The notes under the pieces are model-generated. The model saw only the letters and a program-made list of their open reading frames with translations. It searched no databases and had not been told where the DNA came from. From NCBI RefSeq assembly GCF_035594765.1, contig NC_085843.1, forward strand, positions 13,717,955-13,781,954: a DNA stretch of 64,000 nucleotides, written 5' to 3'. The translations under genes and the position numbers were made by a program. Origin of the DNA: Anolis carolinensis (Eukaryota). Shown piece after piece: positions 8,862 to 46,950 of this stretch (positions are counted from its first letter, which is position 1; every line of letters starts with the position of its first letter).

Positions 8862-11061
8862 CTGTGTCCAGTTATGAGCACCACAATCAAAGATGAATAA
8901 TGACAAGCTGGAATATATTCAGAAAATGGCAACCAAAAAACTCCTAGGATGCCAAAACATGGAGCCTAGTTAAACATAGTTAAAGTGCATCAGTCTGCAT
9001 TACTTCTGCAGTGTAGATGCACCCATTGAGGATAAGAAAACTTAAGAATATTTTTTACATTCCTACTTTGGTGAAGCAGTTACAGTGTAAGAAAATGCAG
9101 CCTTCCAGCCAGAAAATACTCATAGCAGGCTAAGCCTAAGGTCTATCACTCACCCTGACTTTCCTTCTATGCATTTATGGTGAGCATAAAAATGATGTGG
9201 CATGAATCCTCTATGCTTTTACTGTTAGGAAAAGACTTATAGTCCAGGGTTGGAAAGAAAAATATTCACAATCTATTGCCCAATGTTCAGTAAATCTGAG
9301 TGCTTTAGCTATGCATCAACATGCATTTTATAGGCACCACATTCAAGGAAACGAGTTCTTGAAAATATGGCCATCTTATATTCATGTATATTCCTATCCC
9401 ACATACATATACTATTTACTACTGTCTTCCTTTTTTTTTCTTTACTTTTTTTCTCCCCTTTCTCTGTAATACTATTTTAATGACCCAATAAAAAATAAAA
9501 AGGAAAGAGAAACTTGTCACCTTGAGCTCCTTAGAGAAAAGACATGATAAGAAGGTAGAGCATACATAAATATACCCAAACAACAAGCTGGAGATTGAAA
9601 TTGTGTGCTTATAGATGTGAGAGATAAAATACTTGTGGGAAGATGGAAGACAAAAGGGAAAAAATGCAGGTGGAAAGACATATAAGGATGCAGGGAGCAG
9701 AAGAAATGATACAGATATTATGTGCTAAGTTGGCTTCAACGAGTAATGACCCCACAGCTGTCCAAGAAACCCTGTTATTAACAGCCTAGATCAGGTCTTG
9801 CAAAGTAAGGGTCATGGCTTCTTTGACTAAATCAATCCACCTGCCATGCCATCTTCCCCTTTTCCTCTTCCCTTCTATCTCACTAAACATCATGGTATTT
9901 TCCAGTGAGTAATGGCACCTCTCAATATGAATGATGTAGGAAAAACATGAATAATTTTCCCATACAGTACAGCCCCCAAATCCACAGGGATATTTTTCAG
10001 GATCCCATGTGACTATCTGAATCCATAGATAATAAGAAACTATATATGTTTACTACATGTGGGTCAAAAGCATACTGTAGAACCACACTGGATGATCTAG
10101 AGAGGCTCTGAAACATTTCCAGGAGGGAATATTTTTTGGACCAAAGATAAGTGAAACTATGGGTATCAAATCCATGAATAAGAGAGTTGTAGGGTATGTG
10201 TGCGGTGAGGTGGGAGGGTATGTAAATACACACAAACATACAGTGCTCAGTAACAATGCTTCCAATGCTGGCATTGAATGTTTGCCTTATACGCTGGAAA
10301 TTGCCCTGAGTCCCTATGGGAGAGAGGGCAGTCTACAAATAAAGTTTTATTATTGTTATTATTATTATTATTAATGCCACCTGCCCATTCCAACAATCCC
10401 ACTACTGACTGAGTCATTCTGGGAAATATCTTTTTTAAAAGTAAGACCAGACTAAACCATCAATTCAGAACTTCTAATGTTTACAGTGCAGCTGTCACTG
10501 TTTACTTGTACAATTTGTGCAGCTTGATGTAGTTTGTGGAGAAATGGTTCTTGCATGTGTGAAAATGTTCCCAAGACTTGTAGATAATATAGCCTACATT
10601 CTGCATGATGTTTGATAAAATTACACTGCATTACACAATGAGATTGTGGTATCTGCCAAAGGGCCCCCTTACTATCCCACTATGCAAGATAGATTAAACA
10701 GGTGTAATTGCTGCAATTCCAGTAAATAAAGTCATATGCTGAAGGCATGGAACAACATCCATTCCATGTGACTGAAATCCTGTGGGTCATTCTCAACTAG
10801 ACTAGACTTATTCAATCAACTGTTTATAGTGAGTTAACACATAGGTAAATCCAGTTAGCTTCTGAAACCTCTGAAACTCCAATTACTCAGCCATGAACTG
10901 AACATATCCATTGTACACTAGCAAAAAAGTATAATGGCACACACCGAGTGAAATTACACAAGATGAATAGCACCACAGGAATTAGTAGGGGTGTGTGGTG
11001 TTGTTGTTGCTTTTCATTCTCACATGGATGAAAGAGAGAAACACTATTTCCACATTTTATA

Positions 11062-12214
11062 TGTTATGGTTGAGCCTCATGGCTCTACTACTGGGAGACG
11101 TGGGCGTAAGACTCCTCGAGAGTCAGATACTCTCGAGGAGCGAGAAAGGAAGCGGCTGCGAGATATCTTTGCAGAACCATCTGACGAAGATTCTTTTGAG
11201 GGGTTTACTGAGAGAATGGAGGAAGAGGTGGTTAGCTCGGAAGAAGATGATATGGAATGGACTCGGGTAAGGGAGGATTTGGGTGCCACTGGCAATGATA
11301 CTATGGAAGACGATTGGGGACCTTCAGGATTAGACCCGTGGACAAGCTGGAGGGATGGGACAGGATCCACAGCTGGGGATGCTGTGGGGCGTAGTCAGAG
11401 GTGTTCCAGTTCTGATGAGGAAAGTGATGAGGAAACGCCCGGGCTAAGGAGAACAGCTGATAGTGATGAGGACTTGTAACTGGCATAAAATGGGGTTTGG
11501 GAGCAATAGCAAATTGCGTTGGGCAAGGTAATCTGGACGAACGCTTGGGATCTGTGTGGGAAGTTTTCCTGAAGACGGGTGTAATTCGTTTGCTGACTAC
11601 GTAAGTTATCCTGGACATTGGGCTCAGACGGCGGGAGGAATTGTGTGGGGTTTTGTTGTGCAACCTCTGCTTAATCTTAATAGCTTTGACCTTCCGTCGT
11701 CTTCTTGACGGACGCCATCTGCTACTCTGGATTTACGGACTGAACTGACTACGGCCTCGGATTCTCCTACCTGTGTCTGTCGTTGGAACTGGTGAACTAC
11801 AAACGTCTGCATCTGCCTTACGACCTTCGGAACGGACTGGGACTACGCTGACTGCTTCAACCCTCGTCTGCTGTGTTTGTATTGGGAATTTGCCTGCTGT
11901 GTGGAGGAGTAACTTCTAAAGTTACTCAAACATAGTTTTTGGCAGCAGAGAAGCATCTGCTGCCAATTAGTTGCATTCTTTTGAACCTTTTGTTCACCGG
12001 CTTCTGTTTGTTTAATCCCAGGCTGAAGCAAGCTGTTTTGATTTAGTCCGAATTAAACTCCGGTTTAATTCGGTTTATCTTTTGAACGTTTTTCTTGTCT
12101 CTTTTTACTTTTAAGGCCAGTGTTTGCCTAGCCCTTGTCTTTTACGGGCATTTTTGGTTCTGTAACTCCAATAAACTCTGTTATCTTTTATCTTGTGGCG
12201 TTCTGTCTTTGACA
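11062..12214 (+). mobile_element. Solo LTR (1153 bp), copy A, probably Ty3/Gypsy
   Basis: Ends TGTTA...TGACA with 5-bp TSD TTATA (11057-11061 / 12215-12219); TATA-like CATAAAA at 11484; AATAAA at 12170; homologous to 13101-14241. Confidence 0.9.
11066..11479 (+). CDS. LTR (U3)-encoded 137-aa acidic protein with basic NLS-like patches and an FxGF IBM/TIM-like motif, copy A
   Basis: Frame is open from the first LTR bases to TAA just before the TATA box. Same length as copy B, no indels, many synonymous differences. Confidence 0.7.
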   Translation: MVEPHGSTTGRRGRKTPRESDTLEERERKRLRDIFAEPSDEDSFEGFTERMEEEVVSSEEDDMEWTRVREDLGATGNDTMEDDWGPSGLDPWTSWRDGTGSTAGDAVGRSQRCSSSDEESDEETPGLRRTADSDEDL

Positions 12215-12477
12215 TTATATGCAGACAAAAATGTTATCTGCACAAACATCCCTGTGTAAATTTTGCATTGAATAAGTCCAAATTGTGAAAATTCCCATCA
12301 GTCAGAGATTTTTGACTCCAGGATTTCTCAACACTTGAGGAAAAAAACCATATACAGTATGACTCTTCTCTTTGTGGAGATATGTTCCGCATATGAATAC
12401 TCAAAACTGTGTATAACAGTGATCCCTAGATTTTAGCTGTGCTTGGGCCAGAAGCATACTGTAGTATAGCACTAGGA

Positions 12478-12612
12478 CAGTGGTTCTCAACCTGTGGGTC
12501 CCCAGATGTTTTGGCCTTCAACTCCCAGAAATCTTAACAGCTGGTAAACTGGCTGGGATTTTTGGGAGTTGTAGGCCAAAATACCTGGGGAACCACAGGT
12601 TGAGAACCACTG
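12478..12612. mobile_element. hAT-type MITE (cagtggttctcaacct family)
   Basis: TIRs cagtggttctcaacctgtgg / ccacaggttgagaaccactg. Confidence 0.9.
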
Positions 12613-13100
12613 GTCTAGAAGATCTAGAAAGGCCCACAAACACTTCTGGGGGAAGTAAGGAGGGATTGTTTTGGACTATAGCTAAGTGAATCCACTGATA
12701 TTAAATCTGTGAATAATGGGAATAGTACTGTATTCTTGCCATCTCTAGAAAAGCTTAAAATGATTATCTGCTTGACTTGATGACTCCTCTTGAGACAGTC
12801 AAGTCAAATGAAGGAGAACAACCAGACTGGAAATAAGAAACATTACTTGCTTGGACTACAACTTCAAAAATATCAACACCAGTACAGTAATCACACTTTC
12901 TGCCACTTCACTAATTTAAAATGTGAAGATCTCAGCTCAGACATGAGGAGGTTTATTGCTGCTATTGTGTCGTGTTATCTGTGCCTGGAAAAGTTATTTA
13001 TTTTTATTTATTTACAGCATTTATATTCCGCCCTTCTCACCCTGAAGGGGCCTCAGGGCGGGTCACATTACACATATAGGCAAACATTCAATGCCTTTTA

Positions 13101-14241
13101 TGTTATGATTGAGCCTCATGGCTCTGTTACTGACAGACGTGGGCGTAAGACTCCTCGAGAGTCAGATACTCTCGAGGAGCGAGAAAGAAAAAGACTGCGA
13201 GACATTTTTGCAGCACCATCTGACGAAGAGTCTTTTGAGGGGTTTACGGAGAGAATGGAGGAGGGGCTGGTTAGCTCGGAGGAGGATGAGATGGATTGGA
13301 CTCGGGTGAGGGAGGAATTGGGTGCCACTGGCCATGATGGGATAGAAGATGAATGGGGACCTTCAGGATTAGACCCATGGTTTAGCTGGAGGGATGGGAC
13401 GGGATCCACAGCTGGAGATGCTGTGGGGCGTAGTCAGAGGTGTTCCAGCTCTGATGAGGAAAGTGATGAGGAAACGCCCGGGTTAAGGAGGACAGCTGAC
13501 AGTGATGAGGATTTGTAACTGGCATAAAATGGGGCTTGGGAGCAATTGCAAATTGCGTTGGGCAAGGTAATCTGGACGAACGCTTGGGATCTGTGTGGGA
13601 CGCTTTCCTGAAGACTGGTGTGTTTTCGTGTGCTGATACGTAAGTTGTTTTGGAATTCAGGGTCAGACGGCGGGAGGAATTGTGTGGGCATTTGTTTGTG
13701 CAAACCTGTGCTTACTCTTATTAGCTTGACCTTCCGTCGTCTTCTTGACGGACGCCATCTCCTGCTTTGAAAACTCGGACTGAACTGACCACGGCTTGTC
13801 TTCCCCCTTCTTGGACTTGGAAACTACAAACGTCTGCTTCTGGCTTTGATCTACGGAAAGGAACTGGGTCTACTCTACTGCTACAATCCTTGGCTGATCT
13901 GTTCGTGTTGGAAATCCTGTCTGCTGTGTGTGTGGGAGCGACGCAAGTTACTCTAAGCACAGTGTTGGCAGCAGAGAGGAATCTGCTGCCAATTAGTTGC
14001 ATTCTTTTGTATCTTTTGTTCCTCGGCTTTTGTTTTGTTTATTCCCAGGCTGAAGCAAGCAGTTTGTTTTTACCCGGATTAAACTCCAGTTTAATCCGGT
14101 TTATCTTTTGAACGTTTTTCCTTGTCCCTTTTTGCTCCTAAAGGCTAATACTGCCTGGCCCTTGTATTTTACGGGCATTTTTGAGTTCTGTAATCCAATA
14201 AACTCTGTTATCTTGAATCTTGTGGCGTTCTGTCCTTGACA
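13101..14241 (+). mobile_element. Solo LTR (1141 bp), copy B, probably Ty3/Gypsy
   Basis: Ends TGTTA...TGACA with 5-bp TSD TTTTA (13096-13100 / 14242-14246); CATAAAA at 13523; AATAAA at 14197. Confidence 0.9.
13105..13518 (+). CDS. LTR (U3)-encoded 137-aa acidic protein, copy B
   Basis: MIEPHGS...RLRDIFAAPSDEESFEGF...DSDEDL*; 15 aa differences from copy A by manual alignment, mostly conservative (D/E, V/I, V/L, M/I). Confidence 0.7.
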   Translation: MIEPHGSVTDRRGRKTPRESDTLEERERKRLRDIFAAPSDEESFEGFTERMEEGLVSSEEDEMDWTRVREELGATGHDGIEDEWGPSGLDPWFSWRDGTGSTAGDAVGRSQRCSSSDEESDEETPGLRRTADSDEDL

Positions 14242-15254
14242 TTTTAACATAGAACAAAGACAAACAAACATAGGCTCCGAGCCGGGCTTCGAACTCATGA
14301 CCTCCTGGTCAGAGTGATTCATTGCAGTGATTGATTGCAGCTGCTCTTCCAGCCTGCGCCACAGCCCGAGTTACTTTCAAAGTTACTTTTATACACTACA
14401 GTTCTAAACCTTTCTCCAGCCAGCATGCCTAGTGGGCCACATTAGCTGGGGAATTCTGGTAGTTTTAGTTCCAAAAAGTAACTTCTCCAAGCTTTAGACC
14501 AGGTGAGTACCAACACCCTCCAAGGTATCTCAATCTCAACAGAAGTAATGTATTTTATCCATACCATTCTTCAAATCCAGACAGTTAAAAAATATACACC
14601 TAGAACAATTTTTCAAATACAGCGATTTTCATGACTTACTTCTTAGTCATAGAGGGAGAGCAGAAAAGCATCAAAGGAGTTTCCTTTACAAATAAATACA
14701 GGATGGAAAGAAGAATCATGCTTCTGGGCAGGGAATACATATTATATCATTGTCCCCAGGAAACTGCCCTATCTTTCCATGATTGGTACCTCGTATTTAA
14801 TTTCCCATGACTAACAATTTGTTTATCGTAATATCCAGGAGCAGATGTATAGGTTTCATAACCTAATGTATTAATTGCTCTTATGAAACAAGACTGATCA
14901 AATGTTCTGTGTCATTAGCAATGCTCTGACACAGAAATTAAAGAGGGAATTGCTCAAAGCAACTTTTAAACTCTTCGGGACACTTACAAAGCTGGTGTGG
15001 AATTAAGAAGCCTTTATGTTAGGTGGAGTGTGACGGGGAAGCGATATTCAAAATTAAACAGGAGAAACCTTACTGAAATGTGTATATGATAAGCAATATT
15101 GCATATGAAGCTTGAGAGGTAATATGATGGAGCTGGCTTGAGCACTGCATTAGAAAGATCTGAATGCAAGTCCCTCTGTAGCTTTGTATGTGACTTTGGA
15201 TCCATCAAAATCTCTCAGCACAAAATAGGATCCTTCAGATTACCATAAATAATT

Positions 15255-41378: not shown

Positions 41379-41742
41379 TGTCATGGGACCGATTCCAAGA
41401 GCTGAATCTGCAAGCTCTTGAATCGGAGCCATAACAATACGCACTCCTCGATAGCTCCTACGGACACCTGGCAGCCAAGCATGGGAAATTCTGGAGTGAG
41501 AATCAAAACAATTTTAATGAGTAGTTTGTGTTGTAGTGATAGTCATATGATACATGGGGTGGGGTTTGGGTGATGATATTTACGTGTGGTGTGACGTTGT
41601 AGCAAAGGTAATAAAAATGATTGTATGTAAACATTATGTCATTCTCGACTTTTCCAAGTCGTGTGTTCTTCAATAAAGATTGGTTTTGATAGCAGATACC
41701 TTTGGTCTGTGTTCATGCTGATCGTTTGAAGTAAGCGTGACA
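41379..41742 (+). repeat. 5' LTR (364 bp)
   Basis: Direct repeat of 46587-46950; TATA-like taataaaaa at 41609; AATAAA at 41672. Confidence 0.97.
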
Positions 41743-41744
41743 TT

Positions 41745-41755
41745 AAGTCGAGAAT
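41745..41755 (+). other. Self-priming primer-binding site
   Basis: AAGTCGAGAAT is the exact reverse complement of ATTCTCGACTT at 41641-41651 in the LTR; no TGG-initial tRNA-type PBS is present. Confidence 0.8.
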
Positions 41756-41794
41756 CCCATTCTCACCCTCCTGCGGAGCCGCAGTGAAGTGAAA

Positions 41795-44700
41795 ATGAGT
41801 GGAGGGGGCGATCGGAGCCCGAGGGGGGCAGAGGGCCCCTTACCAGATGTCCGGCCGCTGGGAGAGGAAACGCTACAGGCCATCGCTTCCTCCACCGGCT
41901 ACCCTAGGCCGAATGGAGTGACGCAGAGGATCCCCAGAGGAGGGAGAGGAGTCTCGGCGGCTGCGGAGACCAGTTAGGGATCCGGGGGGAGCATGCCGGA
42001 GACCGTGGCGCTACGGTTGTCCATCTTGGAGACCAACTTGTCACGGCTGTCGGAAACCGTGGGAAGATTGGTGCCGTTGTTGGAAGAGAATCTCCAGAGG
42101 GAGCCCACCCAGTACGGCACCGAAAGAGGACCGGGCAAGGATGAAGCCTGGAGCCAGAGGGGCCAGCGCGCGTCAACGCAGAGCCCAACGGCAGCAGGCG
42201 GTGATGGAGACGAGGAGTATTGGCAGGAGCTGGAGTTCCAAGAGAGGATGGCTCGGGAGGTGGATCACCAGCAAACCTTGGGAACTCTGAGGCCACCAAC
42301 CCCAACCAGAATCCCAACCCCCCGAATTGGTATCGGAGTCGAAATACCGCTAGGACCCGGGATCGGGTCTAGTGGGTAGGTGGATGGAAGGGCCGACGGC
42401 AGCGGCGGAATTCCGGGGACCACAGGGGGCGACCGCCGGGCTGGGGTGCGGCGTGGTCAAAAGGTCGGTTCAGGGGAACCTCATGCAACACCTCCCCAGG
42501 CCACCCGTTCAAAGGCAACGTACCGCAGAATGGATGCCTAGGAGAGAGGAGCTTAAACTGGAATACGGAGGGGAATCCTCCGAATTAAACTTTTTCCTCA
42601 TTGGCATCAGAGGGTACATGGAGGATAACGCGCACACATTCCCCTCCGAAGGAAGCATGGTTCGGGCCATCGGAAATACCCTCAAAAGGGGGGCGGCCAG
42701 CTGGTATGTACAATTACACGCCAGGCACGACCCGTGCTTGAGATCAGTGCCCCAATTCCTGGCTGCACTGGAGAACCGTTTTAGAGACCCGCTGGAGCAA
42801 TTAAGAGCTTGCGATCAATTAAAACTCATAAAACAAAGGGACAAGACAGTACCCGAGTATGCAGAAGAATTCCTCCATCTCGCGGAAAGGGTACCAGAGT
42901 GGTCCGAAGTGACCAAAGTAGAAATATTTAAAGAAGGACTGCGCCCTGAGATATTTAGCTGGGCGGCGCACAGGGATGATCCAGAGACGTTACAGGGTTG
43001 GATTCAACTAGCAGGGCGCGTCGAATCTACCCTGTCCCAAGTAAAGCGCTTCCGGAGCGGCGGGGCCCAGCAGCAACCGGCAGCGAGGGGTCGTGGAGAA
43101 ACAAGGAAGCAAGAGCGACCCGGAGGGCGGCCCGGGATCCCCTCCAAAGGAGACGACAACAGACCCAAGCCAGGATGCTTTGTGTGTGGGAAGACGGGCC
43201 ATCGGGCGGCGGAATGTTGGGCCCGGAAGGGAGAACCGCCCAAAGCCACAAAACCCACGCCAGCAGCCGGGAGACGAGCGGAGGAGGAGGTGCAAGCCCC
43301 AGAGCCTCCGGAGCAGCTGGTGAGTCAAGACAAACGCATGATGGTAGTGCCAAACTGCTTATCGGGACTAGAGAATCGAGCCACCTGTAGAGCATTCGTG
43401 GATTGCAGTTGCTCTAGGAACATTATAACTCCAGAATTAGCGGAGGCGCTAAAATGCCAGCAAACTGCACTTAAAGTTCCGATTGCGTTCTCGCAATTGG
43501 ACGGATCGGTGGCTGCTGGGGAAGTATCCACGAAAGAAATACAGGGGATCCCATGTAAAATAGGCAAATGGGAGGGAAGGATATCCTTTATAATAGCCCC
43601 TATCGCCACGTATAATGTCATACTAGGGATCCCGTGGCTGGAGCAGGCAAACCCCGAGGTAGATTGGAGGGGAAAGAGCATGTCGTTTAAAGAACAACAA
43701 ACGGAATGGGAGATAGGCAAGATAGCAGAGGAAGAGAGTGAGGGAGATGAGTCGGAGGAAATAAGCCAAGAACTATTGCCCCCGGAATACAGGGACTTTG
43801 TGGATGTGTTCAATCAGAAGGAAGCAAGCAAATTACCTCCCAAAAGGACTCTAGAAGTGGGAATCGAAATAACCCCAGGGGCAAACTTACCAAAACCTAA
43901 AGTTTACCCCATGTCTGTTCAGGAAAAAGAGGAATTGAGGAAATATATTGATAAAAATCTGGCGCGGGGGTTCATTAAGCCCTCCAGCTCCCCTTTGGGA
44001 GCCCCCGTGTTATTTAGGAGAAAGAAAGACAATTCTTTAAGACTGTGCATTGACTATCGAAATTTGAATGCAATTACGAAGGATAACAAATACCCTATGC
44101 CCTTAGTAAAGGACCTAATTACTGTGTTGAAGAAAGGGAACATATTTACCAAGCTTGATTTGATCGAAGCTTATCATAAGTTAAGAATCAAACCCGAGGA
44201 TACTTGGAAAACTGCATTTTCCTGCGCTTTCGGACTTTTTGAATATTTAGTTTTGCCTTTTGGATTAAAAAACGGCGGCTCCTGCTTCATGCAGCTCATA
44301 AACGAGATCTTACGCCCACTGTTATACCGGGGAGTATTTGTATTTTTAGATGATATCCTTATCGTGAGCGAGGACAGAAAACAGCACATTGAATTGGTCC
44401 GGGAAGTCTTGCAAAAGCTAAGGGAAGCAAAACTGTATGCAAAATTTTCCAAATGTGAATTCAACAAGACACAAATTGACTTTTTGGGGTATCGGATATC
44501 TTCGGATGGATTAGCTATGGACCCATCCAAAGTATCGGACGTAAGGGAATGGGGAGTCCCTCAAACAAGAAGACAATTGCAATCGTTCCTAGGATTCGCA
44601 AATTTCTATAGGTCGTTCATAAAGGGCTTTGCTCAACTGGCCGCACCCCTTACAGAACTTTTGAAAACGAAGGGGAAAGGGGAGACGGCAAAAGTAAAAG

Positions 44701-46511
44701 CCCCTGGCGCTAAGCTGAGTTGGACGCCAGAATGCCAAAAAGCTTTTGAGACTCTAAAAGGATGCTTTACGGAAGAACCCGTCCTAAAGCACCCAAACAT
44801 GCAGAGTCCTTTCATAATACATTGTGATGCTTCGGACTGTGCAAATGGGGCAGTATTATTGCAAAAGGATCAAAATGGGAATTTGAAACCATATGGATAT
44901 TTATCACGGAAGTTTAGCGAAACTGAAAAATGTTGGCCCATATGGGAAAAAGAAGCGTTAGCTATACTGAAGGCATTGGAATGCTGGTGGCATTTTCTTG
45001 AAGGAAGCAAAATCCCATTCGAAGTCTGGTCTGATCATAGAAATCTCCAGTACTTAAAGTCCCCACGAAAATTATCCCCCAAACAAATTAGATGGGCACA
45101 GTACTTCAGCAGGTTTAATTTCCAATTGAAGTTTTTCCAAGGGAAACAAAACATTCTGGCCGATGCCCTTTCACGCATGCCTCAACATGAGAATATAGCC
45201 GCAGCAAAGGAAGGAACTGTATTTTCCGAAAAACAAGGGGGGTTATCAGTCAGCACGAGGGCACAGACAGAAAGAGAGAACTCGGCAGCGGTCAAAATTA
45301 ACGAAGGAGGCATTTGGGAAAAGGAACTGGCACAATCATACGAAGGGGACCAATGGATTTTATCCAACGCAGAAAAAGGGGAACAAAAGGGGGGACTATG
45401 GTTTGTGAAAAGGAAATTGTACATTCCTGCAATATTGAGGGCTAAAATTTTGCATCGTTTCCATGATAACCAGAGCGCAGGACACATGGGAATTACAAAA
45501 ACGACGAAATCCGTAGCGAGGCATTGTTGGTGGCCAGGGATGAGAAAGGACATAAAAAATTATGTTACCCAATGTGACGATTGTGCCATGAATAAATCGC
45601 GGGGGGGGGGGGGAGACCAATGGGACTATTGCAGCCTGTGGCAGAACCTACCAGACCTTGGGAATGTGTGGCTATGGACTTTGTGGGGGAATTACCTGTC
45701 AGCAAGGGGCATCGTTATATATGGACTGTATTAGACTTGTTTTCCAAACAAGCTCACTTTATAGCGCTTGCAAAGCTACCATCAGCAGAGAAACTGGCCG
45801 ACTTATACATAAATCATATTTACAAGCTACACGGATGTCCTAGCAGGGTGGTCAGTGACAGGGGTGTCCAATTCACGGCAAAATTCTGGGGGAAATTCTT
45901 AGAAATATTAGGGGCAGAAAGGAGCATGAGTTCCGCTTTCCACCCTATGACAAACGGTGCAGTAGAACGTATCCAACAGACCCTTGGGCAGTTCCTTCGC
46001 ATATACTCAAATTAGAGACAAAACGATTGGTCTAGGTGGCTAGCATTTGCTGAACTAGCCTTTAATTCTACAATCCATTCCGCAACTAATAAAACTCCGT
46101 TTGAAATAATTTATGGGCACGAAATCCAGCCTTTACCCCAATTGCCAAAGTGGCCAGAGAATGGAGAAACAGGGGTGGGGAAATGGAAGACTCAGATGCA
46201 AGAATGTTGGAGCCACGTGACCTTAAAGGAAGCGCACAAAAAGTATAAAACCTTCGCAGATCGAAAAAGAATTGAGGGCGATAAGTTGGAAAAGGGGGGA
46301 CTTAGTATGGCTAAGTACAAAAAACATAAAACTAGGTCTGCCCTCAAAAAAGTTAAGCCCCAAATTCATCGGACCCTTCAGGATACAGGAAATCATAAAC
46401 GAAGTGACTTTCCAATTACAATTGCCAAAAAGTCTAGGGAAATTACACCCTGTGTTCCATCGCAGCTTATTAAAAAAGTATATGGGTACTTTGGATAAAA
46501 TGGATGCATAG
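41795..46511 (+). pseudogene. gag-pol polyprotein, disrupted
   Basis: Gag with CCHC (CFVCGKTGHRAAEC), protease (AFVDCSCSRN), RT (LDLIEAY, FLDD), RNase H (DASD, EKEALA), integrase HHCC, DDE core and GPF motif. Lesions: TAG 41975, frameshift ~42370, G13 run 45601-45613, TAG 46013, G6 run 46294-46299. Confidence 0.93.
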
Positions 46512-46554
46512 TGTTCATATTTGTTCTGTTTCAGAGTCATGGCGATCGAGGTAC

Positions 46555-46586
46555 AGAAGAAGAGGTCGGCGACAGGGGGGGCACCA
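46555..46586 (+). other. Polypurine tract region
   Basis: agaagaagagg...gacagggggggcacca immediately 5' of the 3' LTR. Confidence 0.8.
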
Positions 46587-46950
46587 TGTCATGGGACCGA
46601 TTCCAAGAGCTGAATCTGCAAGCTCTTGAATCGGAGCCATAACAATACGCACTCCTCGATAGCTCCTACGGACACCTGGCAGCCAAGCATGGGAAATTCT
46701 GGAGTGAGAATCAAAACAATTTTAATGAGTAGTTTGTGTTGTAGTGATAGTCATATGATACATGGGGTGGGGTTTGGGTGATGATATTTACGTGTGGTGT
46801 GACGTTGTAGCAAAAGTAATAAAAATGATTGTATGTAAACATTATGTCATTCTCGACTTTTCCAAGTCGTGTGTTCTTCAATAAAGATTGGTTTTGATAG
46901 CAGATACCTTTGGTCTGTGTTCATGCTGATCGTTTGAAGTAAGCGTGACA
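46587..46950 (+). repeat. 3' LTR (364 bp)
   Basis: One mismatch to the 5' LTR (agcaaaGgta vs agcaaaAgta). Confidence 0.97.

Follow-up and report, generated by a model that had tools for sequence, protein, structure and literature searches.

An integrase tail encoded in the LTRs of an Anolis Ty3/gypsy family resembles LEDGF/HRP2-binding motifs

Two long terminal repeats (LTRs) lying close together in the Anolis carolinensis genome each open with a reading frame of 137 codons plus a stop (11066-11479 and 13105-13518), raising the question of whether a protein is made from a stretch of retroelement DNA that ends just ahead of a TATA-like sequence and, if so, which protein. Coordinates refer to the window, the whole stretch of 64,000 nucleotides that was analysed (NC_085843.1, positions 13,717,955 to 13,781,954). 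The initial annotation had described the open reading frame (ORF) as 414 nt long and free of indels in both LTRs, and we indeed count zero indels between the copies. The LTRs are about 86% identical overall and, since each has its own 5-nt target duplication, represent two independent solo LTRs of different subfamilies, A and B; a reading as the two ends of one element was ruled out by these separate duplications (TTATA versus TTTTA). Neither copy in the window has pol upstream. Their parts are as follows.

11062..12214, plus strand: solo LTR of subfamily A, TG...CA, 1153 nt, with 99-100% identical copies elsewhere
11057-11061 and 12215-12219: target duplication TTATA, flanking LTR A on both sides
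11063..11479, plus strand: U3-encoded integrase tail, copy A, 138 codons counted from the LTR edge, in frame with pol in full-length copies
11066: ATG of copy A, an internal Met of the fused protein
11132..11206, plus strand: TIM/IBM-like motif, copy A, with predicted helix, acidic linker and FEGF (definition in the available text of PMC9987994)
11484..11490 (B: 13523-13529), plus strand: TATA-like CATAAAA, recognised from sequence, putative in function
11516..11526 (B: 13555-13565), plus strand: 11-nt complement of the primer-binding site (PBS), putative RNA 5' end and U3/R border (self-priming, available text of PMC6317226)
12170..12175 (B: 14197-14202), plus strand: AATAAA near the LTR end, recognised from sequence as a putative polyadenylation signal
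13101..14241, plus strand: solo LTR of subfamily B, 1141 nt, with identical copies elsewhere
13096-13100 and 14242-14246: target duplication TTTTA, flanking LTR B on both sides
13102..13518, plus strand: U3-encoded integrase tail, copy B, in frame with pol in full-length copies
13171..13245, plus strand: TIM/IBM-like motif, copy B, an exact fit to the published D/ExExFxGF pattern

The two insertions (11062-14241) lie less than 1 kb apart, an arrangement with a chance of about 0.5-1.5% per element. LTR B interrupts a minus-strand repeat (12997-14370) with a B-box-like stretch near 14290, which looks like a tRNA-derived SINE.

The ORF is under selection for protein. Copies A and B differ at 41 ORF sites, distributed 8/6/27 by codon position; 19 codons carry silent changes only and 15 change the residue, close to the roughly 20 and 15 counted by hand in the initial annotation, and dN/dS is 0.21 (Nei-Gojobori). 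Read in other frames, the same alignment gives 1.5-3.5 in four of them and 0.32 in the antisense frame, which has its third positions in common with the ORF. The remainder of the LTR, which had been said to differ by indels, contains 19 between A and B. When nine other LTRs were compared with LTR A as the reference, all four indels inside the ORF were multiples of three, and among 169 indels downstream of it 17 were multiples of three and 152 were not; a further six indels, each of one base, fall at the stop codon and do not alter the length of the protein. A codon-based comparison across many copies, which the initial annotation had proposed, yielded dN/dS of 0.13-0.54 in 75 between-subfamily pairs and 0.45-0.76 in three within-subfamily pairs among 13 natural copies, these pairs being mutually dependent and the deep ones near saturation. 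The ORF was whole in 29 of 30 A loci and in all 29 B loci read (one B locus was missed by the pattern). Constraint on the promoter at the level of DNA was ruled out as the cause, because the changes sit at third codon positions.

The identity of this protein becomes apparent at the 3' LTRs of longer copies. Following the frame upstream through the polypurine tract (PPT) to pol, a check suggested earlier, gave a positive answer at all 13 junctions of A and B, where a single open frame runs from the SH3/GPY-F module by way of a 26-residue linker and the PPT into the LTR ORF, and the whole 1214-aa pol is open in 10 of them. Automatic gene models in UniRef and RefSeq already hold the fused protein, uncommented. 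A motif pattern with codons unused by A and B returned 2561 further matches (reversed control, 0), from which further subfamilies were identified, together with two older families, C and D; compared with the tail of B, identity is 47-49% in C and 37-39% in D. Nine junctions were read from these other subfamilies and older families: the SH3 module is in frame in six (two of them family C), two have no pol upstream, and one, a broken family-D copy, carries an integrase remnant out of frame. Since pol is open through the PPT into the 3' LTR, the ORF is the C-terminus of integrase and not a nef/sag-like gene, and we regard it as almost certain that the ORF is real, selected and explained as an integrase tail.

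The position of the PBS complement at 11516-11526 would place the RNA start downstream of the ORF, so only the 3' LTR copy should lie within the element's transcript. This agrees with the earlier placement of the ORF within U3, before the start site of the LTR itself, and of its stop 4 nt ahead of CATAAAA, located at 11484-11490. A nef/sag-like accessory gene had been proposed at the outset; read as a separate gene that starts at its own ATG or comes from a spliced RNA, it draws on an ATG located 4 nt into the LTR in A, B and close subfamilies, on donor-like sites in R and on the fact that solo LTRs could be read from host promoters. The fusion to pol and the absence of the ATG in families C and D, whose LTRs start in the same phase as those of A and B, largely refute it; the ATG in the window is thus incidental, and the ORF lies upstream of the inferred RNA start. 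Among contigs of runs guessed to be RNA, none was listed that joins the 5' LTR to an acceptor ahead of the ORF, a weak negative as it comes from contigs only. The earlier idea of expression from the 3' LTR accordingly survives as a fused C-terminus, on the in-frame junctions, and not as a spliced exon, to the extent that such contigs can tell. HIV nef and MMTV sag also overlap U3, but they are separate proteins from spliced or own-promoter RNAs, whereas the Anolis ORF is the end of pol. Taken together, an accessory gene and a DNA-level constraint on the promoter, the latter at odds with differences concentrated at third codon positions, are the most improbable of the accounts considered here.

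Contigs of four presumed RNA runs show an 83-84-nt GT..AG skip in R (11601-11683), which is barely present in one unlabelled run; with sides shorter than 31 letters it hints only weakly at a small intron in LTR transcripts. No LTR group without this stretch stood out among the loci examined.

DNA searches returned 2209 and 2339 candidates, and the many candidates together with the 99-100% identity of the best 40 of each indicate a young, abundant family. Sixty loci were sorted into 24 solo LTRs, 13 5' LTRs and 13 3' LTRs, the rest remaining unresolved. Head-to-tail tandem arrays of the element with shared LTRs were seen at C5:69.73 Mb and C1:26.75 Mb. Contigs of eight sequencing runs cover the element, although start, strand and level are not readable from contigs. 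Full-length copies measure about 6.3 kb, with a gag of 274-278 codons; pol follows in the -1 frame and is preceded by a GGGAAAA site and a hairpin (-20.8 kcal/mol), from which we infer that Gag-Pol is made through a -1 frameshift, in an arrangement that we take to resemble that of PEG10. Pfam identified on a full-length copy a Ty3 capsid and DUF4939 gag, then protease (PR), reverse transcriptase (RT), RNase H (RH) and the integrase (IN) zinc finger, core and SH3 domains. With its LTRs, gag, PR-RT-RH-IN order, TG..CA ends and 5-nt duplication, the family belongs to Ty3/gypsy (Metaviridae).

The Pfam search found no chromodomain (PF00385) in pol of the Anolis family at E <= 1, and the domain is present in 98 of the 120 relatives listed; after the SH3 module come the 26-residue linker and then the LTR tail. 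The PBS is complementary to the 11 nt at 11516-11526 in A and B copies, a complementarity that was not found in the one old family-C copy examined. Self-priming from the RNA 5' end is the arrangement of the Tf1/sushi group in the available text of PMC6317226, and RT and the self-priming PBS point to a placement there. In an RT-RH tree of 99 sequences (FastTree), built without a named sushi/Amn reference, the sisters of the Anolis family (support 0.93) are a chromodomain element from Podarcis and a truncated protein from Gekko. Like the V-clade chromoviruses of the Tf1/sushi group (sushi-ichi, Amn-ichi/ni/san), it combines the PR-RT-RH-IN order, a self-priming site and a 5-nt target duplication with an RT-RH nested among squamate chromodomain elements; unlike them, it has a conserved LTR-encoded FxGF tail of 138 residues and is without a chromodomain, so that it is not a chromovirus in the strict sense.

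Elsewhere in the window, 41379-46950 holds an unrelated gypsy element whose LTRs, each about 570 nt long, are near-identical. Its pol is interrupted near 45600 and ends after SH3 without a chromodomain; a pyrimidine tract and CAG stand just before its PPT, and its RT is sister to Crotalus chromodomain elements. Two repeat fragments at 33636-34140 and 34300-35030 are presumably the 3' endonuclease end of a non-LTR retrotransposon.

LTR-resident ORFs had been called unusual for Ty3/Gypsy elements, which holds only in part. Plant CRM group A elements read through into the LTR, and chromoviruses keep a targeting domain at the integrase end (PMC3059260). Judging by junction sequence, chromodomain-bearing lizard relatives also read into the LTR: an Anolis chromodomain family (L034:2063-6660), for which the LTR edge was shown, reads pol into the LTR and has a tail with an acidic stretch ending LGF, the first Phe missing, and in a Podarcis chromodomain family with the same GD-S/G-VM junction residues pol extends past them. 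Read-through therefore seems older than chromodomain loss. The Anolis family shares with CRM group A a pol that reads into the 3' LTR, but it sits on the vertebrate Tf1/sushi-type RT branch, far from plant elements in the RT-RH tree, self-primes, is dispersed rather than centromeric, and has a recognisable host-type motif in its tail. To our knowledge, the CR motif of plant CRM elements, the only close precedent, has no known partner. No plant sequence was among the best 150 matches to the tail, which was unrelated to CRM in any search. Tail homologues were likewise not found outside Anolis, with 2 matches of 1769 candidates, both Anolis; in a representative library only 2 of the best 150 matches cover the tail, one of them named Anolis.

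What the tail does is suggested by a short motif near its start, which the initial annotation had not noticed. The available text of PMC9987994 defines a TIM as a helix, an acidic linker of 8-16 residues and FxGF, with FxGF marking LEDGF/HRP2 partners and CK2 raising the affinity. In tail copy A, a predicted helix at residues 23-36, ending LRDIF and with the F/V/L/I anchors of this motif class, precedes an acidic linker of 8 residues; S39 in this linker has a CK2-type context, and FEGF follows at 44-47. The pattern D/ExExFxGF (PMC8022399; patterns also in the available text of PMC7337902 and PMC6877644) is exact in B and D, with D for E in A, C and others, and S/T-D-E-D/E occurs in the linker of all 16 aligned tails. 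Family D tails have a second FxGF (TFMGF) about 40 residues past the first. The tail matches no Pfam family, and its predicted model is low-confidence coil save for helix 23-36 (pLDDT about 70-78). Among 177,635 PDB sequences, the best match of a 43-residue query was JPO2 motif 1 in the LEDGF IBD complex 6EMO (12/20 identical), at an E of 0.11 that is not significant by itself; a profile of the 16 tails gave chance-level PDB matches only and did not return 6EMO at E <= 10. Shuffled tails contain [DES]xFxGF in 0.16-0.37% of cases, an optimistic value because the motif was spotted after the fact.

Between A and B, dN/dS is 0.06 in the helix and FxGF window, 0.19 after it, 0.04 in the integrase core and 0.57 in the 26-residue linker between SH3 and the tail, each from few sites. 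Conservation of the motif in C and D is partly built in because the older families were found by the motif pattern; the helix, which played no part in that pattern, has 5 of 12 positions identical across the four families, compared with 14 of 90 in the rest. Four Trp and an acidic C-terminal end are also conserved and are unexplained by the motif. The tail shares its helix, acidic linker with CK2-type serine, FxGF and disordered setting with cellular IBM/TIM proteins (JPO2/CDCA7L, POGZ, MLL1, IWS1, DPF3a, fly JIL-1) but, unlike these, it is a predicted binder only and stands on the integrase of a recently multiplied retroelement. Its layout is of the LEDGF/HRP2-binding type, closest to JPO2 motif 1, and it is a likely binder. 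Anolis PSIP1 has a conserved IBD. A PSIP1 (LEDGF)-like copy at C2:143.72 Mb has no introns and carries a stop within its IBD region, and is probably a processed pseudogene.

Our main reading, to which we assign a probability of roughly 55%, is that the C-terminal 138 residues of integrase, encoded in U3, likely bind the IBD/TND of LEDGF (PSIP1) or HRP2 through the helix-acidic-FxGF layout. The RNA would start about 26 nt after CATAAAA and prime itself, leaving the ORF copies of 5' and solo LTRs outside their own transcript, and the -1 frameshift would deliver, as part of Gag-Pol, an integrase with a disordered tail. After processing, this tail would likely dock on LEDGF or HRP2, whose PWWP reads H3K36me2/3 and would hold the integration complex on such chromatin; CK2 phosphorylation of the linker would strengthen binding, and basic stretches of the tail would serve nuclear import. 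Lentiviral integrase binds LEDGF by a folded core dimer, not by a linear FxGF tail; the likeness would lie in the same host reader placing integration (available text of PMC9987994). FxGF on a retrotransposon integrase was not found in the literature listings examined, at the level of titles and abstract openings, and mention of the motif was not found in the text of a pogo-transposon paper (PMC7386202).

The same features could serve other ends. With 29% D+E and 15 CK2-type sites, the tail may be a general acidic, phosphorylated, NLS-bearing extension for import, solubility or histone contact, its FxGF a chance look-alike, as the bare E of 0.11, the negative 16-tail profile and the chromodomain-bearing relatives that read into the LTR without a full FxGF would allow. 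Such an account is at variance with the full three-part layout, which has the lowest dN/dS in the tail, and with the recurrence of the motif in Podarcis elements at a different position, and we think it quite unlikely. Still less probable is that the element protease releases the tail from Gag-Pol to act as a small protein of its own, such as one competing with host partners of LEDGF: the weakly constrained linker ahead of the tail would suit it, but no cleavage site was identified and the linker is of equal length in all subfamilies seen.

The Podarcis recurrence bears on how an LEDGF/HRP2-binding tail might have arisen. Among 254 proteins with the SH3 module, the strict motif is present in four; two belong to this family, one is a Podarcis integrase and one a relative of the latter. 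Two helix-acidic motifs lie between the chromodomain and a PPT-like stretch in 12 of the 14 proteins of this Podarcis group, the second with FxGF in 12 of 12 and the first in 1 of 12. The group falls on another RT branch, and because support between the branches is weak (0.5-0.6), the motif may have arisen once or twice. We tentatively propose, at a little less than even odds, that squamate gypsy elements, perhaps more than once, gained a host-type LEDGF/HRP2-binding FxGF on their integrase, in Anolis in place of the chromodomain and inside the LTR.

The distribution of insertions shows no sign of gene-dense targeting at a coarse scale: they are dispersed and not enriched on microchromosomes. 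A-type 3' LTRs off the six large chromosomes number 3 of 41, compared with 15.3% of the genome there (P<=3 = 0.11; 0.0006 under an assumed figure of 30%), and along 60 Mb of C1 a hot-spot test of 88 merged sites found no clustering. This chromosome-scale distribution is confounded by the selective removal of genic insertions, and the control family gave only two matches. An apparent absence from microchromosomes (80 of 80 best-match rows on C1-C6) was dropped as likely search bias, because the density of B junctions on C1, 0.55/Mb, is not above the genome mean of 0.62/Mb; B-type 3' junctions number at least 1141. The missing coarse bias favours a further alternative, in which the motif binds a TND, but that of IWS1, TFIIS, Elongin A or MED26, or serves chromatin retention or continued transcription rather than target choice; TIMs bind many TND proteins, although the available text of PMC9987994 ties FxGF specifically to LEDGF and HRP2, and the integrase end is where chromoviruses carry their targeting domain (PMC3059260). 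We consider this alternative unlikely, if less so than a general extension or a free protein.

The fusion to pol accounts for the protein-coding appearance of thousands of solo LTRs in this genome and for their entry into gene models. Beyond that, the tail points to a specific candidate partner with solved complexes and bears on target choice by vertebrate Ty3/gypsy elements. If the tail binds, LEDGF tethering is not special to lentiviruses, and the proposed gain of the motif would, if true, represent a second, lentivirus-independent route by which a retroelement hijacks an H3K36me reader, as well as a natural exchange of a heterochromatin-type tether for one to active chromatin. Sister families, some carrying a chromodomain, others an FxGF tail and, in Podarcis, some both, allow a direct comparison of insertion landscapes.
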